From the NCBI GenBank assembly GCA_963675495.1, contig OY776215.1, forward strand, positions 1,344,001 to 1,408,000: 64,000 nucleotides of DNA, given 5' to 3'. Shown here in pieces: positions 35,105 to 52,272 of this stretch; position 1 is the first letter of the stretch, and each line of letters opens with the position of its first letter. The DNA is from an uncultured Methanolobus sp. GTDB taxonomy: Archaea; Halobacteriota; Methanosarcinia; Methanosarcinales; Methanosarcinaceae. Position numbers and translations under genes: made by a program. The notes under the pieces are model-generated. The model was given only the letters and a program-made list of their open reading frames with translations, was not told the DNA's origin and ran no database searches.

Positions 35105-35131
35105 TTCAGACCACCTTATGTAACGAACAGT

Positions 35132-35446
35132 TCAAAGAAGGACAAGTATTTCTCCATCTTCTACCTTGTTCTCGTAGAATTCAAGAGCTTCATCCTTGTC
35201 TCCAAGATATTTGCCAGACCTTATGTCATATTCCCAGCCATGGCACGGGCACTTCAGAATAAACTCATCTCTGAAAGTTCCTTTAGAAAGACGACATCCC
35301 ATATGTTTGCACTTACCGAAAAGTGAATAGATAACTCCATTTTTCCTTATAAGAAGCAAAGGTGTTCCCTTAACCCTGACAAACTCCATATTGCCCTCAT
35401 TCAAATCACTATCATTAAGTGCAAAAAACCAGGATTTTTCCGACAT
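35132..35446 (-). CDS. Rieske [2Fe-2S] ferredoxin 1
   Basis: CKHMGC..CPCHGWEYDIRSG. Confidence 0.88.
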   Translation of the reverse strand: MSEKSWFFALNDSDLNEGNMEFVRVKGTPLLLIRKNGVIYSLFGKCKHMGCRLSKGTFRDEFILKCPCHGWEYDIRSGKYLGDKDEALEFYENKVEDGEILVLL

Positions 35447-36631: not shown

Positions 36632-36804
36632 ATACTTCACCTTATTTCCATACGATACTCTGTTTGAGTTTATTTTCACAAATATACAACTTACTCGCTT
36701 GTTCCTGAATATAGCAACGGGATCATATGAAGCATTAAAGCCCCATATGAAACCCGTCAATTCCTTTCAGGAGAGGAATTTTGTTTATCTTTATTTTTTC
36801 AGAC

Positions 36805-38049
36805 TTATTCGTATCTCAGTGCATCCACCGGCTTCATCTTTGATGCATTGTATGCAGGAATTACACCTGAGAGTACTCCTATAACTACTGCGATGGAAAT
36901 TCCCATCAGCATAAGATCAGGAGCAATCGCCGTACCCATAGACGAGCGCATCATGCTTATTCCAAGATATGGCAATAGAGATGACAATCCAAGACTCAGC
37001 ACAATACCAAGCACACCACCTACAAAGCCCACAAGCGCAGAGTTAAACAGGAAGATCATGAGAATATCACTGTTCTTAGCTCCTATGGCTTTCATGGTAC
37101 CGATCTCCTTGGTCTTTTCAAGCACAGATGTGAACATGGTGTTTGCGATTCCCACGGAACCTACTACAAGTGACACACCTGCTATGGCTCCCAGGAACAA
37201 TGTCATTGATTCCATCATCTCACTGGCAGATTCTGCCATTGACAATGAATCAGATACAGTGAAATCCCTGTCGTCCTCATCGGCTATGTGCCTGGAGATC
37301 ATAAGTTTCTCTTCTATTTCATCCACAACAGTCTCTACATTATCGGCATCATCTGCTAATACAACTATACTATCATAGACTTCATCCTCTGCATCATCAA
37401 TGATCTCTACTGCTGCATCTATCGGCATGATGATAGAATTATCACTTTCGCCATCTTCCAGTACACCTACAACTCTGAAGGATTTATCTTCAATCACAAG
37501 CACACGGTTGATGGCTACTTCTTCATCGAACATCTCATGGGCTATCTTGTAACCTATGACCACAGCATTGTTGTCAGTGGTTTCCAGCAACCTGCCGGAT
37601 TCCAGGTCATACGTCACGGTGTACTGCCAGACCTGCGGATCTACTCCCTGTACGGAAAGATCGGCAGTTTCACCCATGAAGTAGACTTCCAGATCACTGC
37701 CGGATATCTTGCCATAGATGTAATCGATGTTCTCTACCAGTTTTATTGCCATGATATCCTTGTCAGTCAGTTCTGCATCATCAGAGGAGGAGGAACTGTC
37801 CCCACCACCTCCCGGTGGACCACCTCCCATTGCTGACTGAGCCTTGGTATAACCTGGTGTGACCGATATTGATGTGAGATCCATATCAGCAAACCTTTCT
37901 TCCATATCTGCTTCCATGCTGTCACTGAGTGCCATGATGGTTACAACCGATCCTACACCGATGACGATACCTATTATTGTGAGCCAGCTTCTGATCTTAC
38001 TGTGAACCAGAATATTCATAGCAAGCTTTAGATAGGTACTTCGTCTCAT
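36805..38049 (-). CDS. ABC transporter permease, MacB/FtsX family
   Basis: RSWLTIIGIVIGV, GIANTMFTSVLEKTKEIGTMKAIGA, PVDALRYE. Confidence 0.92.
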   Translation of the reverse strand: MRRSTYLKLAMNILVHSKIRSWLTIIGIVIGVGSVVTIMALSDSMEADMEERFADMDLTSISVTPGYTKAQSAMGGGPPGGGGDSSSSSDDAELTDKDIMAIKLVENIDYIYGKISGSDLEVYFMGETADLSVQGVDPQVWQYTVTYDLESGRLLETTDNNAVVIGYKIAHEMFDEEVAINRVLVIEDKSFRVVGVLEDGESDNSIIMPIDAAVEIIDDAEDEVYDSIVVLADDADNVETVVDEIEEKLMISRHIADEDDRDFTVSDSLSMAESASEMMESMTLFLGAIAGVSLVVGSVGIANTMFTSVLEKTKEIGTMKAIGAKNSDILMIFLFNSALVGFVGGVLGIVLSLGLSSLLPYLGISMMRSSMGTAIAPDLMLMGISIAVVIGVLSGVIPAYNASKMKPVDALRYE

Positions 38050-39434
38050 TTCTTTTCCTTCTTCAATATCTTTCCTTTAAGATTTTTAAGTTCAACACTC
38101 AGAGGTTCATAAGTACCTGCCTTTTGCATCTTCTTCTTCCTGTAATTGAATCCTACAACTACTATTGCCAGAATTGCAGCACCGTAGAGGTAGTAGCTGT
38201 TAGTTGATGAACTCTGCCCGGGCCTGCTGCCAGGAGTCATGCCTCCTGCCATGGTACCACCTGTCAGTTCTTCTACCTGGACTGCTTTATCTACTGAATG
38301 CCTCTGACCAGCAGAGTCGGTGTATTCGATAGTCACAAGAAGCTCACTATTTGATTCCATTTCTTCCTGCATGGCTGCCATGTTTTCTCCACTCATTTCC
38401 GAAGAATCCGGACGTGCCTGAGCTGTACCGGACGAATCTTCTTCATCCATTGAAGGCATTGAACTGGTCTGGCTGATTGAGAACGATGTTATCGTGTAGT
38501 CACCTTTCTCGAGGTTACCGACAATTGTGGAAGTGCTTCCTGTAGCCTGGAAATTATCCTGGTCAGGTATTGATACCTTCACAGAGTAAGCCTCATTGTT
38601 ACCTACATTTGCAAGGGACAGGGAAACCTCTCCTTCATCACTCTCGGAGTAACTCAGGTCAAAGTCAGTGCTTCCTCCGACGAACAATCCCGCTTTAGTT
38701 TCAATTGTGGAAGTGTTAGAGTCGTAATCCTCAAATTCCAGGGTAATATCAAGCTGGTAAAGACCAGGATCCGCATCCACATCGGCCATTACGGAATATA
38801 CTACCGTGATGGATTCGTCCACATCAAGATTACTTATGTATTTGGTGTTGGAGGAATATACCGGCAGGACCACACCTGTGGATTCTTCCCATGAGACTTC
38901 CATATTCTGGAGTGCAGATGATCCTGTGTTGGTTATGACAAACTCCAGGGGTTCCACAGTTGCAACATCAATGCTTGATTCGCTGATCGTAACTATCTGT
39001 GCATATTCTTTGCCCCGTACTTCAACTTCAAGAGTTGTAACGGACCTTGAATCAGATTCACTGTCGCTTACGGTTACATCTACATCATAAGTACCGTCTG
39101 AAACATCGGAATCCACCTTTAGTTTGAATTTTATAAATGATGCGTCTTCCTCATCCTGACGGGCTTCCAGGAAAGAAATTGTCTTGGTCAGGGATTCCCC
39201 GTCCACCTGTGAAAACGGATATTCTGAATCCACACTGACTTTTACATTAGATAGGTCATTGCTTCCCTCGTTCTGGAGACTTAATGTCAGTTCTACTGTT
39301 TCACCTGGTCTTGCAGGGTACGGACTCTGGGTCAAAAGATCCACCGCCACGCCTGATATATCGGCATTCAAATCTGCTGCAACAGTACTTATTGGCAGAA
39401 TCAATATTAACATCAATAACAAAACTTTTCTCAT
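38046..39434 (-). CDS. COG1361-type S-layer-domain protein associated with the ABC exporter
   Basis: Signal peptide, QSPYPARPGE, Ig-like repeats with N-x-G motifs, C-terminal TM + basic tail. Confidence 0.8.
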   Translation of the reverse strand: MRKVLLLMLILILPISTVAADLNADISGVAVDLLTQSPYPARPGETVELTLSLQNEGSNDLSNVKVSVDSEYPFSQVDGESLTKTISFLEARQDEEDASFIKFKLKVDSDVSDGTYDVDVTVSDSESDSRSVTTLEVEVRGKEYAQIVTISESSIDVATVEPLEFVITNTGSSALQNMEVSWEESTGVVLPVYSSNTKYISNLDVDESITVVYSVMADVDADPGLYQLDITLEFEDYDSNTSTIETKAGLFVGGSTDFDLSYSESDEGEVSLSLANVGNNEAYSVKVSIPDQDNFQATGSTSTIVGNLEKGDYTITSFSISQTSSMPSMDEEDSSGTAQARPDSSEMSGENMAAMQEEMESNSELLVTIEYTDSAGQRHSVDKAVQVEELTGGTMAGGMTPGSRPGQSSSTNSYYLYGAAILAIVVVGFNYRKKKMQKAGTYEPLSVELKNLKGKILKKEKK

Positions 39435-39439
39435 TTAAA

Positions 39440-40315
39440 TCACATCGCTTCACTGTTTTTAATCTCTATTCTGTCAACCATTCCATCTTTGATATGGACC
39501 ACACGATCTGCATATTTTGCAAGATCCGGGTCGTGAGTAATCATTATAATCGTCTTGCCTTCGTTTTTGTGAAGGTTGCTTAAAAATTCAAGAATGTAAT
39601 TTCCTGTTTCGCTGTCCAGATTTCCCGTTGGTTCATCTGCAAGGATCACCTTGGGATCAACTGCGAGAGACCTTGCAATTGCAACTCTCTGCCTTTGTCC
39701 TCCTGATAACTGGGAGGGAAGATTGTACTTTTTATCAGAGAGAGTGACGATCTCAAGGAGGTCTTCTGCTCTCTTCCATGTAAAATCAGGATCCTCTTCC
39801 TGGAATTCAAGAGGAAGCATGACATTTTCAATTGTGTTTAATGTTGGTATCAAATTAAATTGCTGGAAAATGAAACCGATGAGCTGCCCTCTTATCTGGG
39901 CAAGCTCGGACTCTGGCATCTTTGAGATATCTTTATTATTTAACTCTACAATTCCCTTACTTGGAATATCCAGGCATCCCAGAAGATTCATCATTGTACT
40001 CTTGCCGCTTCCACTGGGTCCAAGTATGACGACAAACTCGCCATGCAGGATCTCCAGATCGACACTTTTCAGTGCCGCAAATTCTACCTCTCCCATCTTG
40101 TATATCTTCCACACATCAGTAAGACGCATGAGAGTTTCGCGATCGTTGCCTGAAGACTTGTTTATCACATTCGTTTCATCAATGACATTCTTAACAGCCT
40201 CAGTATAATCACCTGAAGACTTGTTCTCCAAATTAGCTCTATCAATGAGATTCTTAGCAGTCTCAATATAATCGTCCGAAGGCTTGTTTTTCACATTCGT
40301 AAAATTCCCGTCCAT
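39440..40315 (-). CDS. ABC transporter ATP-binding protein (LolD/MacB-type) with a repetitive N-terminal extension
   Basis: [41 protein letters not shown]. Confidence 0.92.
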
Positions 40316-40419
40316 AATTTACCTCAATGCGTGGTACTTTAATTTAAATATAAATATAAAGTATATAATTAGTATTTAATACATGTGCCTGTGTGCCTAA
40401 TGAACAGGGAATGTATTAA

Positions 40420-40587
40420 TCAATCTTCCCTTATCGGAGATATTTTCAGCAAACGATCAATTTGTCCAATATCCAGTTTCCTGTACAGAGAGGAAATGAC
40501 ATGTTCAGAAACATTTGTCCAATTCTGGCTTGAACGATCAGCGTTCCATCCATTGAATTTTTGCTGTGTACTATTATTGTTCTTCAT
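40420..40587 (-). CDS. Candidate 55-aa small protein (below the ORF-track cutoff)
   Basis: MKNNNSTQQKFNGWNADRSSQNWTNVSEHVISSLYRKLDIGQIDRLLKISPIRED*; GGAGG 4 nt before the ATG. Confidence 0.35.
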   Translation of the reverse strand: MKNNNSTQQKFNGWNADRSSQNWTNVSEHVISSLYRKLDIGQIDRLLKISPIRED

Positions 40588-40588
40588 T

Positions 40589-40760
40589 CATCCTCCAATT
40601 TCGGATAAGAGACATCTACCGGATAGGGGCAGACATCCCTTAAACGAAGGGGTGGTTGGTTGTTGGTATGTCGGTGACACCTGGTTGGATGTGGTTGGGG
40701 GGTTGATGTCACCGAATTGAATTGTGCCCGTTAGAGCAATAGCACTGACAGGCAATTCCC
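40589..40760 (-). ncRNA. Structured ncRNA / leader, copy A
   Basis: Stem 40671-40715 (11 bp, C/A-rich loop) and stem 40607-40641 (14 bp with 4 G-U on the minus strand, loop CCUAUCC); homologous to copies B and C. Confidence 0.7.
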
Positions 40761-40771
40761 TAATTCGTATT

Positions 40772-40836
40772 TTTAAATAAAAGCATGCTTATTTCAAAAA
40801 GATTTAAAAATAACTACATTTGATTAATAAAGCTTT
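40772..40836 (-). promoter_or_regulatory. Regulon promoter copy A: AAAGCTTT-N38-AAGCATGCTTTTATTTAAA
   Basis: Same two-part signature as at ~47.1, ~49.0, ~52.4 and ~52.9 kb. Confidence 0.65.
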
Positions 40837-41501
40837 ATAAACAATTTAATAGTGAAAAAACAGTTTATAATAAAAATAAAAGCTTATTTAATCTATTATA
40901 GCACTTAAAAATAGCTAAAAAGTGCTGAAAACTAATATTTAACAAAAAATATAGATTGCCTTATCAAAAATGATTAGTATGCAGAAATACCCAAATAAAA
41001 ATAACAAAAAACATTCATTTACTAATCCAATAAGGAAAAATGCATCAGCACACCTTTCTCAAAATTTTAGATCTTGTATGTTTTTTCAGCTTCGATGCCA
41101 AGTTCTATGATTAATGAGTGATTTAAAAGTTATTAAAAGCAAATTGATACTTCATTTAGATTTAAAACAAATAATTGGCATTATAATAAATCATTGATGA
41201 AATTGTATGAGATGCCTTCCAGAAGGAGATGGCAACTAACAAAATGCCTGTAATCAAATGACACAATATATTGACATAACAAAGTATGGAAAAATAGAGG
41301 GTGCAGAAATCCTGCTAATCACAACTTGAATTCTGCAATTTTATGCTCTGTAGAAATCCTACCATGCCATGATTATCTTGAGTGAAAACGAAGGGTCCGG
41401 CAAAGCCAGTGCTTTCCCAGAAGATGAAACAAGATTTCCCGATTTGGATATAGAATGGGATGAGTGACACCGTCATCCTGAGACAATAGTGTCTCTACTC
41501 C

Positions 41502-41582
41502 CAATTCAAAGCATCAGGTTAGATACTACGTACCAGACAGGCATATTTTATAATATCGTTCGCCTCCCTTCGGCCAGCGTCT
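41502..41582 (-). pseudogene. Relic of a DUF1566 lipoprotein 3' end with its downstream flank
   Basis: Aligns with 42662-42740 (shared GGCGAACGATATTATAA, GTCTGGT and flank CAATTCAAAG) with two 1-nt indels. Confidence 0.7.
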
Positions 41583-41599
41583 GTTGATGAAACTGCCGT

Positions 41600-42406
41600 T
41601 TAACTTTCTTCTGCTGTGGGTGTAGTTTCATATTCTATAATAAAACCATAAGCTTTCCCGCCTGATTTCTCAAGACCATAAGTTCCATGTTCTTCTGAAT
41701 AATCTCCCCAGGTTGAAACCGGAGCATTCATTTCACCAAAACCCAGAACTCTCTGACCATAAATTGAATCTCCTGAATCATTTGGTTGTGTATTATCTCT
41801 TGGATCCTGATCAATAATTCCGTCATCTAAATTAGCTGCCCAATTGGTATACTCCCAGGCCTCACCGCTAAGCCAGTTCCAGTCCTGATCAGGATTTTCA
41901 GTAACTAAAATTTGATAACCGCCCAGGTGTGGACCGATCATAATTTCATAATGATTCATTTGATTTTCATCCCCATTCCATTCAGGGAATGGCCAAAAAT
42001 ATTTCTCATCAGAAACAAGTCCAAAGGCAAATTCATTTTCTGCTTCACTTGTAATTGAAACTAAATAACCACCAGCTTCTTCAGCCAGATATGCAGCTTG
42101 ATACCAGTTCAAATTTCCAGTTGGAACATATATAGCTTCATAGTAGTGGGTATTTCCATCATCATTTTCAAAAGATTGAATTTCTTCTCTCTGATAACTG
42201 ACATCTGAAGGTAACTCATCCCAGGTAAAGAACTCTGTATCAGTTGATAATTCAAATTCAACTCCATTAATTACTTTTATTTGAATCTCTCCCAATCCTT
42301 CATCACTTTCTAACACTTCATCATCTGACGCACACCCTGCAAATGCTACAAGAGAAAGTGAAACCAGAAGTACTAATGAAATAAATTTTAATTTATTTTT
42401 ATTCAT
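41600..42406 (-). CDS. Lipoprotein with a C-type lectin-like domain
   Basis: Lipobox FAGC; HYYE..NWYQA..AGGYLVSITSEAENEF..WNWLSGEAWEYTNW..QPND; AT-rich. Confidence 0.78.
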   Translation of the reverse strand: MNKNKLKFISLVLLVSLSLVAFAGCASDDEVLESDEGLGEIQIKVINGVEFELSTDTEFFTWDELPSDVSYQREEIQSFENDDGNTHYYEAIYVPTGNLNWYQAAYLAEEAGGYLVSITSEAENEFAFGLVSDEKYFWPFPEWNGDENQMNHYEIMIGPHLGGYQILVTENPDQDWNWLSGEAWEYTNWAANLDDGIIDQDPRDNTQPNDSGDSIYGQRVLGFGEMNAPVSTWGDYSEEHGTYGLEKSGGKAYGFIIEYETTPTAEES

Positions 42407-42447
42407 ATTATATACCTTGAAATTAATTCTAAAAAAGATAATGTGGT

Positions 42448-42525
42448 TTATAGATCGAACTTTGGGTTGATCTGCTGGTGGCCCACCAGCGCAACAAAGG
42501 CAATTATCAATAAATTGTTCTTCAT
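42448..42525 (-). pseudogene. Internally deleted lipoprotein paralog (signal-peptide start fused to gene end)
   Basis: MKNNLLIIAFVAL is joined out of frame to ggtgggccaccagcagatcaaccc (GGPPADQP), the 3' end seen in the 46359 and 44616 genes. Confidence 0.75.
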
Positions 42526-42634
42526 ATTATCCCTCAATCGCCTTATCTACGATTCTGTTATTGATTTAAATGATTCTTTTGTACTTTTTTACTACAAGTT
42601 GAGTAAAAATATTAATAAAAAATCTGAAAATAAA

Positions 42635-42661
42635 AGAATGAGGATTTATATTCCTCATTCT
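42635..42661 (-). terminator. 3' hairpin AGAATGAGGA..TCCTCATTCT after the DUF1566 gene
   Basis: 10-bp inverted repeat followed by T runs on the minus strand; same arms at 47253-47305. Confidence 0.55.
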
Positions 42662-42678
42662 CAATTCAAAGTGTCGAA

Positions 42679-43875
42679 TCAGACATCCCGCACCAGACGG
42701 ACATAGTTATAATATCGTTCGCCGCCTTCGCCCAGCGCTCCACCTTCATATTTGGTATCGAACCGTGCAGCACCGGCACCATGCGAATCACTGCCGCTGG
42801 CATCGGGTGCAGTGCCAAAGGCAACATACCAGGCGTAGTAGTATTCCAAGCTGTTACCACCGAAGTAAGCACTGGTACTAGTCCAGAAGTATCCGTAATC
42901 CGTGTCGTATTCCGTTGTTCCTGCAGGAAGCTCGGTGATGTCGAAGTAGTCTGTGTCAATAGCAGGACCAAGATCCTCCTCATCATCCGCACTTGGGGAT
43001 GAGCTATAATCAACGATGCTCTGAAGCTCTTTCACATTGGGCAGACGCCAGTCATCGTAGCCGGCAAGTGTAGAATCCTCAGCATATTCAAGAGCATCTT
43101 CCCAGTCCATTCCAGTGCCACTGTCTGCCTGTTGCCACATCAGACCTGTGGCTTCATCAGTGACCGTGCCGTCTCCATTTGCCTCGAAGTCATTAAGACC
43201 ATATGAATCGCCTCTAACTGCACGCACATACTTAGCCATCGGACCGTTAACTGTTGCAGGATATGCCTTGATATGTCCCGTTCCGTGATTCACTCCAAAA
43301 GCTGCATCAGATCGACCTTCCACAGTTGTGCCAACGTAATAGTTAGCAGACCAATATTGTTCATCTTTGCTCACACGTGAACCTGAACCTACCAGCTCAA
43401 AATAATCCGTATTTATGTAAGGCCATCCTTCTGAGAAGTCATTAAGGGAATACAATTCCTTCATAGTAGGCATGCGCCATTCATCATAACCACCCAGTTC
43501 CAGGGATTCACAGTATTCATTTGCTTCTTCCCAGTTCAAGGTGGCATCTATCGGAATCTGCTGCCACATCAGTCCTGTAATATCATCCGTTATTGTGCCG
43601 TCACCGTTGTCAGTATAACTGGCTTGCAGGCCGTCAGATTGAGCATCTTGACCATAGAACGCCTCTCCTTCTTCAGGGCAGTCTATTTCGTTTCCGTCAG
43701 CATCATAACATGCAGTCTGGCTGGTGTCAACAATCGGGTATGTCAGGCCGGTAGTGACCTGTTGCATTGATGTCGATTCGGCATCATCTGCATCTGTCTG
43801 TTCTGTGCAGCCGGAAAGCGAGATGGCAAGGACCATCATCGCAACAAGAGCGATTTTTAATAAATTTTTCTTCAT
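42679..43875 (-). CDS. DUF1566 (Lcl C-terminal) double-domain lipoprotein
   Basis: Lipobox LSGC; DNGDGTxTDxxTGLMWQ, GYDxWR(L/M)PxxKEL and YVR(A/L)VR, each twice. Confidence 0.85.
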   Translation of the reverse strand: MKKNLLKIALVAMMVLAISLSGCTEQTDADDAESTSMQQVTTGLTYPIVDTSQTACYDADGNEIDCPEEGEAFYGQDAQSDGLQASYTDNGDGTITDDITGLMWQQIPIDATLNWEEANEYCESLELGGYDEWRMPTMKELYSLNDFSEGWPYINTDYFELVGSGSRVSKDEQYWSANYYVGTTVEGRSDAAFGVNHGTGHIKAYPATVNGPMAKYVRAVRGDSYGLNDFEANGDGTVTDEATGLMWQQADSGTGMDWEDALEYAEDSTLAGYDDWRLPNVKELQSIVDYSSSPSADDEEDLGPAIDTDYFDITELPAGTTEYDTDYGYFWTSTSAYFGGNSLEYYYAWYVAFGTAPDASGSDSHGAGAARFDTKYEGGALGEGGERYYNYVRLVRDV

Positions 43876-43944
43876 ATTATTCCTCTGTTATATGATTATA
43901 TTTCAGTTTCAAAATTGATTACAGCATATCAAATTTATTCTATT

Positions 43945-44394
43945 TTACTTTTCTTTTTCTTTAGCCATGATTACTTTCTGATAAAAAACCAGATATAAGA
44001 GTAATGTTGATAAACCTAAGATCAAAAAGATAATTTGCATCTCTAACTCATAGCTTGCTGAATTAAATAATAGTTCTAATAATGATGCGGTAAAAGTGAT
44101 TTCCATAAGATATTTGACACTCAGATGATGATTCTTGAAATAAGCCATAAGTACCTTGTATGCTTTTACTAGAATCACAATTGTTGCAACTACTTCCAAC
44201 CACATAATTGCTTGACTATGAAAATTTATAATTTCTCCTGAATAAAACATACGGAGTATCTCACGAGAAAAAATCACCACCCCAATTGTTGAATGTAAAA
44301 ACATAAACAATATTAGCACTACTGTCGGAATCAAGACTGCATAAGAAACAACCTTATCTAATAATTCTTCAACTCTTTGCTCTTCCATCTTCAA
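43945..44394 (-). CDS. Four-TM membrane protein, PsiE-like
   Basis: Hydrophobic helices with YFKNHHLSVKYLMEI pattern; AT-rich. Confidence 0.55.
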   Translation of the reverse strand: MKMEEQRVEELLDKVVSYAVLIPTVVLILFMFLHSTIGVVIFSREILRMFYSGEIINFHSQAIMWLEVVATIVILVKAYKVLMAYFKNHHLSVKYLMEITFTASLLELLFNSASYELEMQIIFLILGLSTLLLYLVFYQKVIMAKEKEK

Positions 44395-44568
44395 TTACCT
44401 ACTAATAAAATATAAAAATTAAGGCCCTCATGCAGTAATCTTTTCAATTGAACCCCATGTTTTATTCGCATCTCCCATTGAACCTGAAAAGTGCATGATT
44501 TTGAATCAGAGACTTCCGGCGGAGAGTAGAAAATAAATATTTAAACTCTATGAGGAGATTGTAAAATT

Positions 44569-44596
44569 ATGGCTGCCTCTCTGAAGGGGCAGCCAT
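44569..44596. terminator. Hairpin ATGGCTGCCTCT-CTGA-AGGGGCAGCCAT
   Basis: 12-bp stem 3' of the 44616 gene; paralog at 46311-46338 carries a compensatory change. Confidence 0.55.
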
Positions 44597-44615
44597 CATA
44601 CCTTATAGATCAATT

Positions 44616-46133
44616 TTAGGATTGACCTGCTGGCGGTCCTCCGGCAGAAGTTCCTAAAGCTTCCATGAGAACTTCTTCAGTAACACCAAGTTCAGCTGCT
44701 GCAGCTGCGAAATCAGGAGGAGTCTGTCCAGGCTCACCTAATGCTGCTACCAGTTCGTCCTCAGTTATGCCTAATTCTGCGGCTGCAGCTGTGAGATCAG
44801 GCATTTCCTGTTGCTCTCCGGGACCACCGGATTGTTCATCATCCGGGGCACTTCGATCATCGGGACCACTACCTCTATTACTCATACCTGTGTCACCATC
44901 CTCGAATACAACAACCCGATCGGTATCGATGACACTTGGATCTCCATCCGGTGTTTCGACGACATCACCGCCGCGTACCAGGCGCACATAGTTGCCCGAG
45001 TCATCGGAAACGTCTACCGATTTTCTGTCAAAACAAATCGAGCCTGCACCATGCAAGTCGTAGCCGTCCGGGTCTGCGTTGTAGCCGGAAGCAAGGAACC
45101 AGGCAAAAACGGTGCCGCCATCGATATCGTCGCCATCACCTTCTATCGGATTGGACGTACTTGACCAGTAAAATGGATAATCGACCTGCTCGGCTATCAC
45201 ATCACCAGTCTCAGAATCATAAACTACATTTGTGATCTCTGTCAAGTCGAATACGCTTGTATCTATGGCCGGAAATGAGCCGGAGTAATCCGCAATACTC
45301 TGCAATTCTTTGATATTGGGCAGACGCCAATCATCGTAGCCAGCATAGGTGGAGTCTTCAGCATAGGCCAGGGCATCTTCCCAGCTCATTGCCTCACCAC
45401 TGTCTTCCTGAGACCACATCAGACCGGTTGCTTCATCAGTAACAGTGCCGTCACCGTTGTCAACAAAATCATTGATGCCGTAGGATGTATCGCCACGAAC
45501 AGCACGCACGAATCGATTACCGCTCATCGCTTTGATGTGTCCGGTCCAGTCGTTGACAATAAATGCGGGATCGCCTTGAACCTGCTCGTTCTGATACTCA
45601 CTTTCGACCAGGTAGAGATTACTTGTCCATGAATGATGCTGAGCAAGATCAGAACCATCACCTACCAGGTAAAAGTAGTTGGTATCGATCCATGGCCAAC
45701 CTTGTGAATAGTCCCTGAGAGACCACAGTTCTTTCACCGTAGGCAGGCGCCAGTCGTCATAGCCACCCAGTTCCAGGGATTCGCAATATTCATTCGCATC
45801 TTCCCAGCTCATGGATGAGTCTGAAAGATCCTGCGCCCAGACCAGACCGGTCACGTCGTCGGTGACAGTACCGTCGCCGTTGTCGGTGTAGCTGGGAGTG
45901 ATTCCTGTGTATTGTGCATCCTGTCCATAAAATGCATCACCTTCGGCAGGACATTCAATGCGTTCGCTATTGTCGTAGCAGGTACCCTGGTTTGTATCCA
46001 CAATTGGATATGTCAGGCCAGTTATAGATGTTGATCCAGTATCTGCTGTATCCGTCTGCTCCGCGCAACCGGAAAGCGAGATGGTAATGACCATCAGCGC
46101 AACAAAAACAATTTTCAATAAATTATTTTTCAT
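44616..46133 (-). CDS. DUF1566 double-domain lipoprotein with a C-terminal (AAAELGxTE)2 helical module
   Basis: Lipobox LSGC, two Lcl domains, tail GGPGEQQEMPD..AAAAELGITEDEL..AAAAELGVTEE. Confidence 0.85.
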   Translation of the reverse strand: MKNNLLKIVFVALMVITISLSGCAEQTDTADTGSTSITGLTYPIVDTNQGTCYDNSERIECPAEGDAFYGQDAQYTGITPSYTDNGDGTVTDDVTGLVWAQDLSDSSMSWEDANEYCESLELGGYDDWRLPTVKELWSLRDYSQGWPWIDTNYFYLVGDGSDLAQHHSWTSNLYLVESEYQNEQVQGDPAFIVNDWTGHIKAMSGNRFVRAVRGDTSYGINDFVDNGDGTVTDEATGLMWSQEDSGEAMSWEDALAYAEDSTYAGYDDWRLPNIKELQSIADYSGSFPAIDTSVFDLTEITNVVYDSETGDVIAEQVDYPFYWSSTSNPIEGDGDDIDGGTVFAWFLASGYNADPDGYDLHGAGSICFDRKSVDVSDDSGNYVRLVRGGDVVETPDGDPSVIDTDRVVVFEDGDTGMSNRGSGPDDRSAPDDEQSGGPGEQQEMPDLTAAAAELGITEDELVAALGEPGQTPPDFAAAAAELGVTEEVLMEALGTSAGGPPAGQS

Positions 46134-46310
46134 GTTATTCCTCTGGGATTTAATTGATTAATATTGATTATTAAAAATAATAGAATGATCTCAGGTTTCT
46201 CTTCATGTCAATTATAAGTCCACATACATTTGGTTCTTCGATTTCGAATAAGAGACCCTGCGGAAAGGATAAAATAAATATTTAAACTTTTTTGATGGGA
46301 TTGTGAAGTT

Positions 46311-46338
46311 ATGACTGCCTCTCTAAAGGGGCAGTCAT
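46311..46338. terminator. Hairpin ATGACTGCCTCT-CTAA-AGGGGCAGTCAT
   Basis: Paralog of 44569-44596 (GGC/GCC changed to GAC/GTC). Confidence 0.55.
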
Positions 46339-46358
46339 CCACGTTTTATAGAGTTAGC

Positions 46359-46802
46359 TTAGGGTTGATCTGTTGGCGGCCCACCTGCAGAAGCTCCTAA
46401 AGCTTCCATAAGTGCTTCTTCAGTAACACCAAGTTCGGCTGCTGCGGCTGCGAAATCAGGGGCGCCCTGGTCAGGGTCTCCTAATGCCGCTTCCAGTTCT
46501 TCTCCGGTTACGCCTAATTCAGTGGCTGCAGCTGCAAAATCAGGCATCTCCTGTTGCTCCCCTGGACCACCGGGTTGACCATCTACCTCTTCATCATTTC
46601 TGACTGCATTTTCTTCAGAATCCATTTCTGGTTCAGGACGATCATCATTTTCTACTGGCAATTCTGATGTTGAATCAGCGGTTGTTTCCTGCTGAGATAT
46701 GGATTCAGTATCTTCTGCACCTGTCTGCTCCGTGCAACCGGAAAGCGAGATGGCAAGGACCATCAGCGCAACAAGAGCTATTTTTAATAAATTATTCTTC
46801 AT
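46359..46802 (-). CDS. Small lipoprotein: signal + acidic linker + (AAAELGVT)2 module, no Lcl domain
   Basis: N- and C-termini very similar to the 44616..46133 protein. Confidence 0.8.
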   Translation of the reverse strand: MKNNLLKIALVALMVLAISLSGCTEQTGAEDTESISQQETTADSTSELPVENDDRPEPEMDSEENAVRNDEEVDGQPGGPGEQQEMPDFAAAATELGVTGEELEAALGDPDQGAPDFAAAAAELGVTEEALMEALGASAGGPPTDQP

Positions 46803-46898
46803 GTTATCTTCCTTTTGTATAAATAGTTCATTATATTTTTAAATGATTGAATGTTGAATACATCATTTTGAACGATAAACCTACCCCATAATTTGCAG

Positions 46899-47063
46899 CA
46901 CCACCGAACAGAGTAATCTGCGGATAGGTACAGACACCTCTTAACAATTGGTGGTTGGTTTTATGGTGGCACCTGGTGATTGGAGATCAATTTGAATGGT
47001 AATGTTCAGGTGCCACCATTATGGGGGATTGAATACTTCAGCAATCATTTGCTGGACAAATCC
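46899..47063 (-). ncRNA. Structured ncRNA / leader, copy B
   Basis: Perfect 13-bp stem ATGGTGGCACCTG/CAGGTGCCACCAT (46963-47019), 3' stem with loop ACCUAUCC, 5' hairpin CAGCAA-AUGA-UUGCUG. Confidence 0.72.
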
Positions 47064-47076
47064 TAATTTGAGATTT

Positions 47077-47137
47077 CTAATATAAGCATACTTATCCCAA
47101 AAGATGGAAAATAGTCCGAATTTAGAAATGAAACTTT
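47077..47137 (-). promoter_or_regulatory. Regulon promoter copy B: AAAGTTTC-N36-AAGTATGCTTATATTAG
   Basis: Shared two-part signature. Confidence 0.62.
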
Positions 47138-47322
47138 ATAGTGCATTTAATAACACATATATATTCCATAATTGCCTTTAAAACTTATTAACAGACTATT
47201 TGGGTTTTAATTAATATTAAAATAAATAAAAATGGGTTTTTAATTTGTCATCAGAATGAGGTTTATGGGACAACTCTACCATACGATAGTGATGGCCCTC
47301 ATTCTCAATTCAAAGTATCGGG

Positions 47323-48642
47323 TTAAATATCCCGTACCAGACGCACATAGTTATCAATTCTTACGGCATCACCCTGCGGGCCGTTGCCTTCTGGATAATC
47401 TGATGCTTCACCTGCTTTGGGATCGCTCTTCTGTGCTCCTGCGCCGTGCACATCCTGCCATTCATCTTCCATATATCCCATCGACCTGCCAAAAGCTACA
47501 TAGGATGCAGCACCGCCGTTTTCGTTCGATGATGCATGTGTTGTTCCACTCCAGAAGTACGGATAATCTGTCTCACCAGCTTCGTTTGTAATCGCTGTGC
47601 ATTCAAATACCGGATCGATTGCGGCAGATTCTGAGGTGTCAGGTGAACGTGAGTAGTCAACAATGCTCTGGAGCTCTTTTACATTCGGAAGGCGCCAGTC
47701 ACTATAACCAAGATAGGTTTCATCATTCTTTGTCTGAACCCATGCGAGCGCCTCTTCCCAGTTCATGCTAGTCCCACTGTCTGACTGTGACCAGACAAGA
47801 CCTGTTGCCCCATCGGTAATTGTACCGTCACCGTTGTCTGAAAAGTTGTTTATACCGTAATCCGGATTGCCCCTGACACAGGTGACAAAGAATGTTTTAT
47901 CACTGTTGAACAGGGTCAGACCATAGCCCTTTATTCTGCCATCGGCAAAATTCACACCGAATAGTAAGCTGTCCTCATATACATACAGTGTTTCTGATGC
48001 GTACTGCGAGTCAATGATGCGCTCGCCCGCATCTGTATCTCCATATGCGAAACTAAAATAATCTGTGTCGATAAATGGAATCAGGTCTGAGGTGTCAGTC
48101 CCTTCGCTGGGATCAGTACCACTGAATCTTATTAATGAATATTGTTCCTTGATGGTCGGGAGGCGCCAGTCGCTGTATCCCCCATAGTTTTCCGCATTAA
48201 GCTCGTCCACAAATTCCTGTGCCTCGGACAATGTGAGTTTATCTTCTGCAAGGATTTCACCGTCACCATTGGTATCCGGAGATTGCTGCCACGTCAATCT
48301 GGTGACTTCATCATAGACTGTAAGTCCGTCACTGCTGATTGCGTAGGACGGTTGGTTACCAGAATACTGTGCATCCTGTCCATAGAACGCTTCGTCTTCC
48401 TCCGGGCAAGTGATCTCGGTGCTAGTGTCGTAGCACATCATCTGGCCGGTATCAACTATTGGGTATGTTAGACCAGTAGTGGTGGTCTGTTGTGTAGATG
48501 TTGATTCAACATCTTCTGTATCCGCCTCTTGCGTAGATAACGGTTCAGTATCTTCCGCATCTGCCTGCTCCGTGCAACCGGAAAATGAGATAGCGATAAG
48601 CATCATCGCAACAAGAATAAATTTTAATGTATTTTTCCTCAT
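47323..48642 (-). CDS. DUF1566 double-domain lipoprotein
   Basis: Lipobox FSGC; TYPIVDTGQ, YGQDAQY, GYSDWRLP twice, HGAGAQKSDPK, YVRLVR. Confidence 0.85.
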   Translation of the reverse strand: MRKNTLKFILVAMMLIAISFSGCTEQADAEDTEPLSTQEADTEDVESTSTQQTTTTGLTYPIVDTGQMMCYDTSTEITCPEEDEAFYGQDAQYSGNQPSYAISSDGLTVYDEVTRLTWQQSPDTNGDGEILAEDKLTLSEAQEFVDELNAENYGGYSDWRLPTIKEQYSLIRFSGTDPSEGTDTSDLIPFIDTDYFSFAYGDTDAGERIIDSQYASETLYVYEDSLLFGVNFADGRIKGYGLTLFNSDKTFFVTCVRGNPDYGINNFSDNGDGTITDGATGLVWSQSDSGTSMNWEEALAWVQTKNDETYLGYSDWRLPNVKELQSIVDYSRSPDTSESAAIDPVFECTAITNEAGETDYPYFWSGTTHASSNENGGAASYVAFGRSMGYMEDEWQDVHGAGAQKSDPKAGEASDYPEGNGPQGDAVRIDNYVRLVRDI

Positions 48643-48827
48643 ATTATTCCTCTATTATATGTTTTGCAATTTTGATAATTAGTTCTCGTGGTTTCATATC
48701 ACTTTTTTGCTACAATTAAAATATTAAATGATATTAATATTAGAATTTTAAAAAATTGATGATACGTGAAAAGAAAATGATTGAGATTTAATAATCCTGA
48801 TTTAAAACATGATTTTACGTAATAGAT

Positions 48828-48993
48828 TCACCAGCATCGAATAGAGGCATCTGTAGATAGATACAAATGCCTCTTAACGATTGGTGATTGATTCTAGATG
48901 ACACCTGTAAGAGGTTGGATAGGTTGGTGGTATTCAGGTGTCACTGCTGAAAATGGTGGTACGTTTCAGCAATCACTTGCTTGACAAATTCCC
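48828..48993 (-). ncRNA. Structured ncRNA / leader, copy C
   Basis: Stem TGACACCTG/CAGGTGTCA (48899-48943) with C/A-rich loop; 13-bp stem 48843-48874 with loop UCUAUC. Confidence 0.72.
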
Positions 48994-49005
48994 AATTGTT
49001 TATTT

Positions 49006-49067
49006 CTAATAAAAGGATACTTATAGAAAATAGATTCAAAAAAGACAATACATTATAATGAAGCTTT
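49006..49067 (-). promoter_or_regulatory. Regulon promoter copy C: AAAGCTTC-N37-AAGTATCCTTTTATTAG
   Basis: Shared two-part signature. Confidence 0.62.
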
Positions 49068-49243
49068 TTTGCACAATTAAAATGAAATAAAATTGGTAAA
49101 TCAACCTTAAATACTTATCAGACACCAAATTATATTTTATTTCATCAAATAAACAAGATACCGGGTTCCAGAAATAACTATGTAAATACCACTTAAAAGT
49201 GAAATACATCTGGAAATCGTATGGTTGCTATAAAAGGAAAATA

Positions 49244-50140
49244 TCAATTGTCTTTCTCATCTACCAGAAAGAGGACATTTCCACGTCCCTTCTTAAATTT
49301 CTGGATCCTGCCCCTCTTTTCAAGGTCAAGGAGCATGAGACTGACCTTGCCTTCAGAGTACTTAAGACGCTTACGCATATCCTTTTGAGTCATTCTTCCA
49401 CCCTGTGATGTGAGAATATCAAGGATCTCCTGAAGATCTGCAGGCACCGGTTCATCAGAAGGAAGGGGAACCGATTCTTCTTTTGTTTTTCCCAGAGGGA
49501 TATTAACAGGTTCATTAACAACAGGTTCATCAACTGTTTCACTTACTGTTGTGCCAGCATCTTCTTCCGGCATCAATCCCTGTTCTTCTTCCACCTTTCC
49601 CCCAGTTACTTTTTCTGTAAGCACCGGAGTTACATGCAAAGATTCTTCTGTTTTTACTTTCTTTGATGGAAGAGACTTTTGTGGTTTCCGTTTGATCTGG
49701 TATACCAGAACAAGCAGAAGAATAATAACAACAAACACAGCTCCAACCAGAATTGAATTGCTCCGAGCCGTCGCTTCCGCACTACTTACAGTCTCTTCAC
49801 TGGAGCTGGAATATGAGGGCAAAAGCAGAAGATCTAAAACATAGCTTCCCTCATCTGAAACTATGATCGTGTCTTCAGCAGAGTAGGTAAGTCGATCATC
49901 TTCGTAATAGCTTGCAGTAATGTGATAAGTACCATTTGGTAATTCAAAGGAATAGACACCATACTTGGCCACCATTGACTGCGAAGGGGTCGAATTTACT
50001 TCGATTATTGCATTGTCAAGAGGCTCAAATGTGCTCCATTCATAGGCCACGCCATGTACAGTTGCAATACTTGAAGCTGCAGTAACGCCTGATAACAGCA
50101 AGATCATGGCAATACAAACGATACAGGATATTACTCTCAT
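49244..50140 (-). CDS. Membrane-anchored wHTH regulator (COG2512-like): signal peptide, extracellular beta-sandwich, TM, cytoplasmic wHTH
   Basis: MRVISCIVCIAMILLL..; carboxypeptidase-regulatory-like beta domain; TM ILVGAVFVVIILLLVLVY; GGRMTQKDMRKRLKYSEGKVSLMLLDLE..KKGRGN. Confidence 0.8.
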   Translation of the reverse strand: MRVISCIVCIAMILLLSGVTAASSIATVHGVAYEWSTFEPLDNAIIEVNSTPSQSMVAKYGVYSFELPNGTYHITASYYEDDRLTYSAEDTIIVSDEGSYVLDLLLLPSYSSSSEETVSSAEATARSNSILVGAVFVVIILLLVLVYQIKRKPQKSLPSKKVKTEESLHVTPVLTEKVTGGKVEEEQGLMPEEDAGTTVSETVDEPVVNEPVNIPLGKTKEESVPLPSDEPVPADLQEILDILTSQGGRMTQKDMRKRLKYSEGKVSLMLLDLEKRGRIQKFKKGRGNVLFLVDEKDN

Positions 50141-50162
50141 GTCACACAACCCGGTTTTTGTA

Positions 50163-51077
50163 TCAGTCACGCTCAAACATTTGCTTTTCCCAGAGATTTT
50201 CTTCTCTGTCGGGTGTACCATTTTCAAAATAATATGTACCGTTACCAATCAGCTCGGCTTCACCGACACCAGTTGCAAGCAGGCTTATTTTTTCAGCCAT
50301 TATCGCAACGGAGAAATCTGTGCCTGACAAGGACACATTGCCTTCTACCTCTACATATGAAACCGTTCTATATGGTTTAATGTACCCTGTAATTGTTTCT
50401 CTTTCCGGAAGAACTTCCTGATTGTAGTCTTTTTCAGAATCAATTAACATATCACCTGCAAAATCAATCACAGAGAATTTACCCCCGGAAACGAAAAAAC
50501 TTGTATCGAAGTCCCCGGACAAGATCACAATACCACTGCCTTCAGCTACCAGATTAGTATTATCATATATTTTCACAGGACCAGGAAGATATTCTTTCAT
50601 CTTAGCGAATATGGATTTAAGTTCTGAATTTGCACGAATGATACTTCCTCTTGATAGTTTTAAATATTTTTCTTCATCTGATTTTACGGAAGAAGTTTCA
50701 GCCTCAGCAAGATACATCTGGGCTTCGGATACAAGAGTAGCATATTTACCAGTCATCTGTTCCAGTTCCTGAACATCATTGCCTTCTTTTTTCAGACGCA
50801 TGGTTGCGTTATTAAGATTGATGACAATAGCCTCTGCCTTCTCAATATTGTCTTTGAGAACAAATTTTTCATCAACCGGAAAAGAAGGTGGAGGCAGGTG
50901 GATGAGTAACCTTTCCCCTGTTTGTAGCTCTTTTACATCAAAAGGAGGAGTGAACAATAGATCATACTGCTCATGCCTTTCATCAGGATATTGTTGCATA
51001 TCACCCGAATCCACAATGCCTGAAACAACAACAAGAAGCATTAGAAATATCAATAGTATCAGAGGCATCTTTTTCAT
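50163..51077 (-). CDS. Secreted/membrane-anchored protein of unknown function (helical + beta domains), paralog 1
   Basis: MKKMP + hydrophobic segment; LKKEGNDVQELE; GSGIVILSGD; paralog of 51367..52272. Confidence 0.7.
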   Translation of the reverse strand: MKKMPLILLIFLMLLVVVSGIVDSGDMQQYPDERHEQYDLLFTPPFDVKELQTGERLLIHLPPPSFPVDEKFVLKDNIEKAEAIVINLNNATMRLKKEGNDVQELEQMTGKYATLVSEAQMYLAEAETSSVKSDEEKYLKLSRGSIIRANSELKSIFAKMKEYLPGPVKIYDNTNLVAEGSGIVILSGDFDTSFFVSGGKFSVIDFAGDMLIDSEKDYNQEVLPERETITGYIKPYRTVSYVEVEGNVSLSGTDFSVAIMAEKISLLATGVGEAELIGNGTYYFENGTPDREENLWEKQMFERD

Positions 51078-51366
51078 TGACGATCACATCTTTGGGAATA
51101 CAAGCAACAAATCACTATATCCTGTTTCAGGACAGATAATTGATATTAAAGTGTTTTAAGCATAGTCTTCATTTAATATATTGCACACATATTTAAATGC
51201 ATGCTCTTGTTATAGGTAATGGAAAAGAAAACATTATTACAACCTTTCGATTTACTTAAATGATTTTAACCTTGGAATAATCTGATTTTGCTGAAAAATA
51301 TAATGATGCAAATTCAGGTTGCAAAACATGTAGCCTTAAGTTCACATTTCCACAATTAGCAATATC

Positions 51367-52272
51367 TCAATCAATACTGAATATAGGAGATACCCATATA
51401 CCTTCCTGTTCCATGCTGTTAGTATCCAGATAATAGGTCCCTTTACCACATAATTCAGAATCCCCTACGCCCTTTGCAAAAATACTTACATTGTCACCCA
51501 TAATGACCAAAGTAAGTGCTGAACCGGACAGAGACACATTGCCCTCTACATCCTTATATGAGAACATCATTTGTGGAGGTTTGGGATCATTGTATTGAAT
51601 TGCTTTTTCTGCGATTATTTCAGGGCTATACATACCTTCTGTATCAATATCCAGATCTCCTGCTAGGTCAACTACTGAAAAATTACCCATATGCAAACTA
51701 AATTCAATATCAAGATCACCTGACAAAATGACTATCCCACTGCCCTGAATGGTCAGTTTATCATTTTCGGATAGACTGGTTGGCTTTGGAAGATATGTTT
51801 GCATCTTATCGAAAATATCCTTTAGCTGCGAATTTGCAAGAATAATCTTATCTTTTGACAAACTGAGGTATTTCTGCCTATCTAAAGATGATGAAGAAGC
51901 ATCAGCCTTTTCAAGATTGTTTTTTGCCTCGGACACTAACAAACCGTAATTATCAACCATTTCTTCAAGTTCCTGAACATCATTTCCTTTTTCTTTCAAC
52001 TCAAGAATTGCACCTTCCAGCCGTCCTACCATTTCATCAGATTTTTTGATATTATCTGCAAAAATAATATTTTCATCTCTTGGAGCTTTCCTATTGCCAG
52101 ATTCAAAGAAAAATCCTTCATCTGATAATTCATTGCTGATAAAAGCAGGATGTGTGGACAATTGATCATGATTCTCCTCACGAACATCAGAGAAACTGCT
52201 GGATTCAACAAAACCAGATATCAATACAATGAATATGAGGAACATTATCATGGCAATTGGCATCTTTTTCAT
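51367..52272 (-). CDS. Secreted/membrane-anchored protein of unknown function, paralog 2
   Basis: Same layout: LKEKGNDVQELE, GSGIVILSGD, VEGNVSLSG, GKGTYY. Confidence 0.7.
   Translation of the reverse strand: MKKMPIAMIMFLIFIVLISGFVESSSFSDVREENHDQLSTHPAFISNELSDEGFFFESGNRKAPRDENIIFADNIKKSDEMVGRLEGAILELKEKGNDVQELEEMVDNYGLLVSEAKNNLEKADASSSSLDRQKYLSLSKDKIILANSQLKDIFDKMQTYLPKPTSLSENDKLTIQGSGIVILSGDLDIEFSLHMGNFSVVDLAGDLDIDTEGMYSPEIIAEKAIQYNDPKPPQMMFSYKDVEGNVSLSGSALTLVIMGDNVSIFAKGVGDSELCGKGTYYLDTNSMEQEGIWVSPIFSID

Follow-up and report, generated by a model that had tools for sequence, protein, structure and literature searches.

What is the function of three similar intergenic segments, each lying behind a similar promoter and in front of genes for exported or envelope proteins, that are crowded into a few kilobases of an archaeal genome? 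The question is raised by a 64,000-nt stretch of an uncultured Methanolobus sp. (contig OY776215.1, positions 1,344,001 to 1,408,000), hereafter the window, in which all coordinates are given; the 2.87-Mb genome from which it derives is called the source genome. An earlier note, made from the letters of the window, had proposed that these segments are diverged homologues on the minus strand encoding a structured RNA. They are indeed homologous, with a mean column identity of 75% when aligned together with 70-90 nt of upstream flank, and they are genuine copies of a structured RNA of about 175 nt that was not described before. We consider it somewhat probable, from comparative sequence analysis, that this RNA is the leader of messenger RNAs (mRNAs) transcribed from their own conserved promoter, and that it serves in cis as a docking platform for a trans-acting macromolecule setting translation and/or stability of the first cistron. 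The three copies (A, B and C) and their three hairpins (P1, P2 and P3) are located as follows, with scores for R1, the covariance model made from the window's own three copies, and for R2.

40585-40762, minus strand: leader copy A, canonical 'd' type; covariance-model match of 138.5 bits (R1) and 140 bits (R2)
about 40719-40758, minus strand: P1 of copy A
about 40671-40715, minus strand: P2 of copy A, with a C/A-rich loop of 23 nt
about 40600-40648, minus strand: P3 of copy A with its basal extension
40592-40596, minus strand: Shine-Dalgarno (SD) sequence GGAGG of copy A
40585-40587, minus strand: AUG of the small open reading frame (ORF) behind copy A
46888/46890-47066, minus strand: leader copy B, variant type without small ORF; 169.6 bits (R1) and 80.7 bits (R2)
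about 47039-47054, minus strand: P1 of copy B
about 46963-47019, minus strand: P2 of copy B
about 46900-46955, minus strand: P3 of copy B
48821-48995, minus strand: leader copy C, variant type without small ORF; 180.6 bits (R1) and 80.4 bits (R2)
about 48968-48981, minus strand: P1 of copy C (AGCAA/UUGCU)
about 48898-48944, minus strand: P2 of copy C
about 48829-48887, minus strand: P3 of copy C with its extension

With R1, no match above noise was obtained in the rest of the window and none elsewhere in the source genome, so that the copy number is three, all within a single 8.4-kb stretch. A fourth, degenerate copy suspected around 46250-46300 received no covariance-model score and turned out to be part of a repeat shared with 44516-44597, located 3' of two lipoprotein genes. 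When compared with dinucleotide shuffles, the minus strand folds with z-scores of -4.67 (A), -4.81 (B) and -5.94 (C), none of 200 shuffles equalling any of them, while the plus strand of copy A gives a z-score of -0.79 and 42 of 200 shuffles fold equally well. In the minimum-free-energy folds, P2 comprises 11 bp in A, 13 bp in B and 10 bp in C and closes G-poor loops of 23, 31 and 27 nt, respectively, whereas P3 comprises 15 bp in A and 13 bp in C, with a basal extension of the UUCG/CGAA type; four G-U pairs can be read directly from the sequence of P3 in copy A. The P2 and P3 stems named earlier, the G-poor loops and the basal extension are thus all recovered, with the correction that P3 of copy B is interrupted by a 2-nt internal mismatch. 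The second 5' hairpin of copy C (UGCUGAAA/UUUCAGCA), which had been proposed as the mutually exclusive alternative of a switch, did not survive the comparison: it is missing in copy B and in 34 copies from relatives, and is therefore an accident specific to copy C rather than a trait of the family.

Is the structure itself maintained by selection, and on which strand? A total of 37 copies from 20 genomes were aligned by MAFFT, independently of any structure, and the paired state was compared with two controls, namely partners shuffled among sequences (500 shuffles) and partners slid by 1-3 columns. The consensus consists of 28 pairs in three helices (7 in P1, 8 in P2 and 13 in P3), 95.5% of the cells being paired compared with 89.1% in shuffles and 35-51% with slid partners. 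Changes on both sides of a pair occur in 15 of these 28 pairs and 96 cells, against 36.5 cells in shuffles, and the observed values were reached by none of the 500 shuffles on four of the five measures and by three of them on pair count. The addition of eight divergent members (45 sequences) raises the figures to 18 covarying pairs and 128 cells, in an alignment that was fitted to the model and is to that extent biased towards the structure. Besides, P3 has at its base a UCG/CGA extension of 3 bp that is retained in 31-32 of the 37 copies. G-U pairs, which would read as A-C mismatches on the other strand, are frequent: one P3 pair is G-U in 14 of the 37 copies and one P1 pair in 18. While each arm of P2 is nearly self-complementary (GGUGNCACC; GGTGNCACC, a palindrome), substitutions are compensated in the opposite arm and not within the same arm (UA four times at pair 74/130, AU four times at pair 71/133), as expected of one RNA hairpin and not of two DNA operators. 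Taken with the covariation, the G-U pairs and the poor folding of the plus strand in copy A, this bears out the proposal that selection acts on an RNA and not on a DNA palindrome.

Additional structure was looked for in the same alignment among the single strands: several stacks can pair, as further helices or pseudoknots, with zero double changes in any of them. Pairing between CCACC of J1/2, the strand joining P1 and P2, and GGUGG of the 5' arm of P2 is possible in 93% of the cells, again with zero double changes. The raw list of covarying column pairs is dominated by the phylogeny of two subtypes, 'u' and 'd', and pairings of the 5' end with the loops of P3 or P2 that had been spotted by hand proved inconsistent across copies. 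Regarding coding capacity, a stop-free frame exists in just 13 of the 37 copies, in a frame that varies between copies, and the linkers take 13 distinct lengths from 19 to 33 nt, including non-multiples of three; the leader region is consequently noncoding. A 55-aa ORF at 40588-40755, overlapping copy A, was likewise rejected as coding since it is not conserved.

What is conserved most strictly is not the helices. Positions conserved at 90% or more in the 37 copies cluster in single strands, while the loop of P1 and the stems drift. The near-invariant strands are ACCACCC in J1/2, CCCCAACCACAUCCAGCC in the P2 loop, GUACCAACAACC in J2/3 and CCUAUCC in the P3 loop, all of them G-poor and C/A-rich, and their conserved cores read ACCACC after P1, AA.C..AUC.A in the P2 loop (consensus AACCCCCAACCACAUCCAGCC), UACCAAC after P2 and CCUAUCC in the P3 loop. 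This amounts to about 40 near-invariant single-stranded positions, which together hold around five ACCA/CCAAC repeats. In composition, the leader has 31% C and 19% G, compared with 20% each in the genome; each leader contains on average 4.9 ACCA motifs (1.3 in shuffles) and 2.6 CCAAC motifs (0.4 in shuffles), figures that reflect a common design and not independent events, the sequences being related. The 'u' and 'd' subtypes share the single-strand motifs despite their different stems, and the CA-rich, G-poor strands stay unpaired in all folds.

The RNA is moreover inseparable from its promoter. The similarity of the three copies spans the TATA region (TAAGTATGCTTTTATTAGAAA-like) and a further box some 45 nt upstream of the TATA; since homology begins about 90 nt 5' of the RNA, promoter and RNA form a single cassette. 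The promoter elements of the window are the following.

40771-40791, minus strand: TATA region TAAGCATGCTTTTATTTAAAA of copy A (pattern match)
about 40826-40838, minus strand: palindromic box ATAAAGCTTTAT of copy A (pattern match)
47074-47094, minus strand: TATA region of copy B (pattern match)
about 47125-47138, minus strand: upstream box TAAAGTTTCAT of copy B (pattern match)
49003-49023, minus strand: TATA region of copy C (pattern match, alignment)
about 49057-49070, minus strand: upstream box AAAAAAGCTTCATT of copy C (pattern match, alignment)

The promoter is kept in all 37 aligned cassettes. Conversely, the promoter pattern at 0-1 mismatch is found in the source genome at the three leader sites only, and a single unrelated site with two mismatches has no leader. 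The palindromic box ATAAAGCTTTAT, or its variant AAAAAGCTTCAT, is positioned some 45 nt 5' of the TATA region and has been retained in another genus, g28, as well; it is a candidate operator for the membrane-anchored DUF7343 winged-helix proteins encoded nearby or, alternatively, a candidate second TATA-like element. In M. psychrophilus, the BRE (B recognition element) and TATA elements lie about 19-22 nt from the transcription start site, according to a published study (PMC5378194), and this spacing would place the 5' end of the leader at or just before P1. From the position of the TATA box, the RNA probably starts some 8-12 nt inside the start given by the earlier note.

How far does the cassette extend among archaea, and what does it precede? 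The covariance model was rebuilt twice after the three-copy model, and the genome counts are samples under strict filters, in which an absence reads as not found in the genomes searched. The three-copy model gave one or two matches, usually about 2.7 kb apart, in 19 of 35 other Methanolobus genomes, and none in 25 genomes of other genera; with all models combined, 24 of these 35 Methanolobus genomes carry one to three copies. The third model found the leader in 23 of the 34 Methanolobus genomes sampled, in 5 of 11 of genus g28 (one to three copies each), in 1 of 13 of genus g22 and in 1 of 34 of genus g19 (genome G109), with no match in 58 genomes from 12 further genera of the family or in 102 genomes from five other families of the order. 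A scan of 185,579 species genomes for an exact pattern returned 98 matching stretches; among the 80 of these listed, all archaeal records are Methanolobus (M. vulcani, M. bombayensis, M. profundi and others) and the remainder are bacterial, mostly actinomycetes such as Streptomyces, which we take as chance matches to a G+C-rich pattern.

The leader is invariably on the same strand as an ORF and just upstream of it. A small ORF of 41-86 aa follows 32 of the 37 leaders, its SD and start codon being within about 30 nt of P3, and the canonical copies show no U-run terminator after P3. The usual Methanolobus locus comprises a secreted protein of unassigned family, a DUF7343 protein and cassette 'u' (promoter, leader, small ORF of 66-86 aa), then a second secreted protein of unassigned family, a second DUF7343 protein and cassette 'd' (promoter, leader, small ORF of 55-63 aa). 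Cassette 'd' is succeeded by genes for an ABC ATPase, a CARDB/NEW3-type surface protein of about 460 aa, a MacB_PCD/FtsX permease and a transglutaminase-like protein. The DUF7343 proteins consist of a signal or transmembrane segment, a carboxypeptidase-regulatory-like domain and a C-terminal winged helix. Co-occurrence with this operon is nearly strict: among the 25 other Methanolobus genomes encoding the CARDB protein of the operon, all but one carry the leader (24 of 25), and none of the 10 genomes without the protein does, the exception (G017) being a 130-contig assembly with a 55%-identical, interrupted CARDB match, in which the leader was not found. Further Methanolobus genomes, as well as g28 and g22, have divergent leaders in front of this ABC operon, and leaders of g28 also precede a small ORF followed by a surface protein of 1351-1554 aa. 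In the window, the corresponding genes are arranged behind copy A and upstream of copy C.

40420-40587, minus strand: small ORF of 55 aa, directly behind leader A
35603-40315, minus strand: operon behind leader A, with the same gene order in the relatives examined (Pfam)
39440-40315, minus strand: ABC ATPase (Pfam)
38046-39434, minus strand: CARDB/NEW3-type surface protein of 462 aa (Pfam)
36805-38049, minus strand: MacB_PCD/FtsX permease (Pfam)
35603-36760, minus strand: transglutaminase-like protein (Pfam)
49244-50248, minus strand: DUF7343 membrane-anchored winged-helix protein (Pfam, synteny)
50163-51077, minus strand: secreted protein (Pfam, synteny)
51367-52272, minus strand: secreted protein (Pfam, synteny)

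The DUF7343 gene and the two secreted-protein genes (49244-52272) flank the cassettes in every Methanolobus locus examined. The small ORFs have no match in Pfam or NCBIfam; they form a family with the motif KLxxxQ[MI]xRL in 24 of 32 members, mostly followed by ISP, while 11 of the 32 end in DF[K/R/..]W, a family to which the ORFs at L055:6252-6428 and L057:11133-11336 also belong. The small ORF of copy A is 96% identical to that of the nearest relative, G001. At the same place in g28, the small ORF differs and reads KYGFKN..LDKRQLNLxxWN.

From these observations, a scheme can be drawn for how the cassette might operate. Promoter, upstream palindrome and leader travel together as a regulatory cassette placed in front of genes for exported or envelope functions, be it the small ORF with the MacB-type exporter operon, the operon of the neighbouring membrane-bound winged-helix regulators or, in the window, the lipoproteins. 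Transcription from the TATA box would yield the 5' leader of the downstream mRNA, in which hairpins P1, P2 and P3 would hold out the near-invariant, G-poor and C/A-rich strands. These would dock a putative macromolecule, for which an oligomeric RNA-binding protein is the likeliest candidate and a G-rich RNA a less likely one, and docking would in turn set the translation and/or the stability of the first cistron, hence of the operon. It is the display, by stems, of invariant and repeated ACCA/CCAAC strands that suggests a docking platform, by analogy with CsrA, TRAP and Hfq/Crc. As for a leader in general, covariation is found on the strand predicted to be transcribed and the position between promoter and gene, on the same strand, is constant across species. 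Of the cis-acting leader, riboswitch or attenuator, that had been put forward, the leader fits the strand, the place just upstream of an ORF, the co-occurrence with the operon and the exclusivity of the promoter, while the riboswitch or attenuator as such is not supported, since there is no terminator after P3 and no ligand is indicated. At a more tentative level, the leader may be an archaea-specific regulatory leader that receives a signal, through an ACCA/CCAAC-reading protein or a ligand, and may form with DUF7343 regulators acting on the upstream palindrome a portable two-layer control cassette for an envelope/export stress regulon, copied to new genes and moved between genera.

Several points weigh against the docking platform. 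The motif repeats stem from related sequences and could partly mirror the C-rich composition. Occlusion of the SD by the C-rich J2/3 strand had looked plausible from ensemble folds, where the SD has a mean probability of being unpaired below 0.5 in 31 of 36 copies, with SD calls that were automatic and in a few cases doubtful. It was rejected as a common mechanism because the duplex is no stronger than with shuffled J2/3, with a mean z of +0.42 and z below -1 in 4 of the 37 copies. Moreover, 45-190 nt separate P3 from the start codon in g28 and in copies B and C, a distance that excludes direct masking of the ribosome binding site as the mechanism shared by the family. Finally, conservation among copies B and C and the two homologues of these in G109 stops at UCAAUCAUUUU, some 70 nt after P3, possibly the 3' end of a transcript of their own.

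The last of these points leads to the first rival explanation, in substance the second proposal of the earlier note, that of a stand-alone or leader-derived small RNA (sRNA) acting in trans, whose C-rich loops resembling an anti-SD would pair with GGAGG/GGUG sites of other mRNAs. The RNA has its own promoter, its loops and linkers are C-rich and G-poor, and anti-ribosome-binding-site sRNAs are documented in the same family of organisms (PMC5867862). The idea is most plausible for copies B and C, which lack the small ORF, are 87 and 178 nt away from the next gene and possess a conserved U-run about 70 nt after P3 that is shared with the G109 homologues. An independent 3' end, unattached to an ORF, is by contrast not seen in the canonical copies: in 32 of 37 copies, P3 is succeeded within about 30 nt, with no U-run in between, by the SD and start codon belonging to a conserved small ORF. 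The strict co-occurrence with one operon likewise speaks against the idea. Besides, the source genome contains no complement to the 19-22 nt P2 loop at two mismatches or fewer, except the antisense of the loop itself, in a search restricted to extended matches; for J2/3, the two-mismatch matches in this genome are scattered. All in all, a trans-acting sRNA is an unlikely account of the family. In copy C, U-runs are present downstream of the RNA at 48745-48775 on the minus strand (CAUUUUCUUUUCAC, then AAUUUUUUAAAA), before the lipoprotein gene, and in the alignment the first of them coincides with the point where the conserved block of copy B and of G109 ends, which may be the 3' end of a separate transcript.

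A riboswitch for a small molecule or an ion, in which an aptamer for a compound exported or sensed at the envelope would control the small ORF and the exporter operon, appears rather unlikely. Covarying stems with near-invariant unpaired nucleotides, in a fixed position within the 5' untranslated region (UTR) of a transporter operon, are what such an element would present, and the possible pairing of J1/2 with the 5' arm of P2 could supply the alternative helix. However, the architecture is one of three serial hairpins with long open loops, without multi-helix junction or internal-loop pocket, neither the pseudoknots nor the alternative helix is accompanied by covariation, and no terminator or conserved SD-masking expression platform was found; nor is there any match in Rfam 15. 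The diversity of the downstream genes, i.e. an exporter, a regulator operon, lipoproteins and the 1351-1554 aa surface protein, suggests no single metabolite, which further argues against a riboswitch.

Similarly unlikely, in our view, is a constitutive mRNA element, where the 5' hairpin and the stems would protect the transcript from 5'-3' decay and the CA-rich stretches would act as ribosome standby sites or translation enhancer. P1 is indeed at or within a few nucleotides of the inferred 5' end, the CA-rich and G-poor strands are unstructured in every fold, and long stabilising 5' UTRs are reported in Methanolobus (PMC5378194). Yet a generic stabiliser does not need some 40 near-invariant single-stranded positions across species while its stems drift, and it leaves the strict coupling to one special promoter unexplained.

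A DNA-level feature, such as operator palindromes, or a mobile repeat, i.e. a miniature inverted-repeat transposable element (MITE) or the end of an insertion sequence (IS), is highly improbable, for although each P2 arm is nearly self-complementary and the cassette has been duplicated and has moved with a lipoprotein island, P2 changes are compensated across the arms, the G-U pairs and the strand asymmetry of folding indicate an RNA, and the copies number three at one locus and, in other genomes, one to three in fixed synteny, though no specific search was made for terminal inverted repeats or target duplications.

The setting of the two variant copies deserves closer attention. The leaders of B and C have a shorter C-rich stretch before P3 and lack the small ORF; they sit within an 8.4-kb block of paralogous lipoprotein genes (about 41600-49000), between the DUF7343 gene and cassette A, which encodes three Lcl_C/DUF1566 proteins, one 147-aa lipoprotein, a C-type-lectin-like protein and a 149-aa membrane protein. 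The genes that follow the two leaders are these.

46359-46802, minus strand: lipoprotein gene of 147 aa, 87 nt downstream of leader B
44616-46133, minus strand: Lcl_C lipoprotein gene, after the 147-aa lipoprotein gene
47323-48642, minus strand: Lcl_C (DUF1566) lipoprotein gene of 439 aa, 178 nt downstream of leader C

This block is absent from the nearest relative, G001, where the DUF7343 gene is directly followed by cassette 'd'. The same variant cassettes and lipoprotein genes, with 70-86% protein identity, are found in a different genus, at locus L193 of the 4.1-Mb genome G109; when the two genomes are compared, conservation of the cassette sets in at the upstream box and stops some 70 nt after P3, at UCAAUCAUUUU, beyond which the alignment dissolves. 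We infer from this distribution that the lipoprotein island moved between genera and brought its own cassettes along. Cassettes C and A bracket the island, an arrangement that would fit integration via recombination within the cassette.

Some further features of the neighbourhood were recorded. Between the 398-aa Lcl_C gene and the lectin-like gene, a lipoprotein-gene remnant at 42460-42525 (minus strand) shows the start MKNNLLIIAFVALVG... followed by the C-terminus of the family, ...QQINPKFDL, and is the deletion relic of another lipoprotein paralogue. A conserved G+C-rich hairpin (GAUGGCUGCCCCUUCAGAGAGGCAGCCAU-like, minus strand) comes after the stop codons of two lipoprotein genes (44540-44597 and 46282-46339); the 3' region that includes it is duplicated, and the hairpin may serve in 3'-end formation or transcript stability. 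No model match was obtained at 51078-51366, between the two secreted-protein genes, where most Methanolobus loci have the 'u' cassette, the gap of 289 nt comparing with about 830 nt in G001, and the 'u' cassette has therefore apparently been lost from the source genome. The latter also carries a paralogous ABC ATPase/CARDB/FtsX operon (G000:C1:2850554-2853929) with 87-93% amino acid identity, MarR-like genes upstream and neither leader nor cassette, which suggests that the same type of exporter is under different control there. Two to three tandem genes for Rieske-type [2Fe-2S]-like proteins (about 101-117 aa; CPH..C...C.CH) follow the exporter locus, at 34799-35446 on the minus strand in the window, and are also found in five of the seven Methanolobus loci examined.

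How, then, does this RNA compare with known systems? None of the 4227 covariance models of Rfam 15 has a match at gathering score in the whole window, and under permissive settings the region 40000-49500 yields four sub-threshold matches, all outside the three copies and the best of them at E 2-4, so that the earlier statement that no known family is recognised holds for Rfam 15 at both thresholds. In the literature searched on structured RNAs in Methanosarcinales, on DUF7343 and on follow-ups of the 'cold box', no description of the leader RNA was found, nor any paper on DUF7343. To our knowledge, very few archaea-specific cis-regulatory RNAs have been reported, and most archaeal Rfam entries are riboswitch classes shared with bacteria. 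On sequence grounds, the present RNA would be classified as a structured cis-regulatory leader with an unusual, portable promoter-leader cassette.

Within the same genus, nine 'cold box' sRNAs share the layout of the cassette, a conserved RNA being combined with a conserved motif upstream of the promoter (PMC5378194). They differ in copy number, no Methanolobus genome searched having more than three leader matches, and identity of the two is unlikely, judged by copy number only. Within the same archaeal family, the closest functional analogues are sRNA154 and sRNA41 of M. mazei, likewise structured RNAs with C-rich loops resembling the 16S anti-SD and a promoter of their own, but intergenic, independently terminated and provided with mapped mRNA targets (PMC5867862). 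The present RNA, on the other hand, is in 32 of 37 copies fused to the SD and start codon of a downstream ORF.

Leaders of Rho-dependent attenuators also have C-rich, G-poor unpaired stretches (here 31% vs. 19%) and a length of 170-180 nt like the present RNA. We know, however, of no Rho in archaea, and the termination factor described in archaea is reported to act at U-tracts.

The delimitation of this leader is clear and supported by covariation, and its some 45 natural variants, fixed promoter partner, clear gene set and testable ACCA-rich strands offer a concrete handle on post-transcriptional control in methanogens, which could lead to a new archaeal RNA-binding regulator. In addition, the cassette lends a context for guessing the function of three unannotated protein families, namely the small ORFs, the 301-aa and 304-aa secreted proteins and DUF7343. 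We know of no archaeal protein that reads a motif of the ACCA/CCAAC type. The closest likeness in design is with bacterial systems, i.e. the GGA loops bound by CsrA and displayed by RsmZ, the TRAP-bound trp leader and the CA-motif leaders of Hfq/Crc together with CrcZ: there as here, a short motif (in the leader ACCA, CCAAC or AACAAC) is repeated in loops and linkers near a ribosome binding site, and the J2/3 strand (CCAACAACCAACAA) fits loosely the AAnAAnAA motif of Hfq/Crc. In these systems, a repeated single-strand motif usually binds an oligomeric RNA-binding protein or a complementary RNA.

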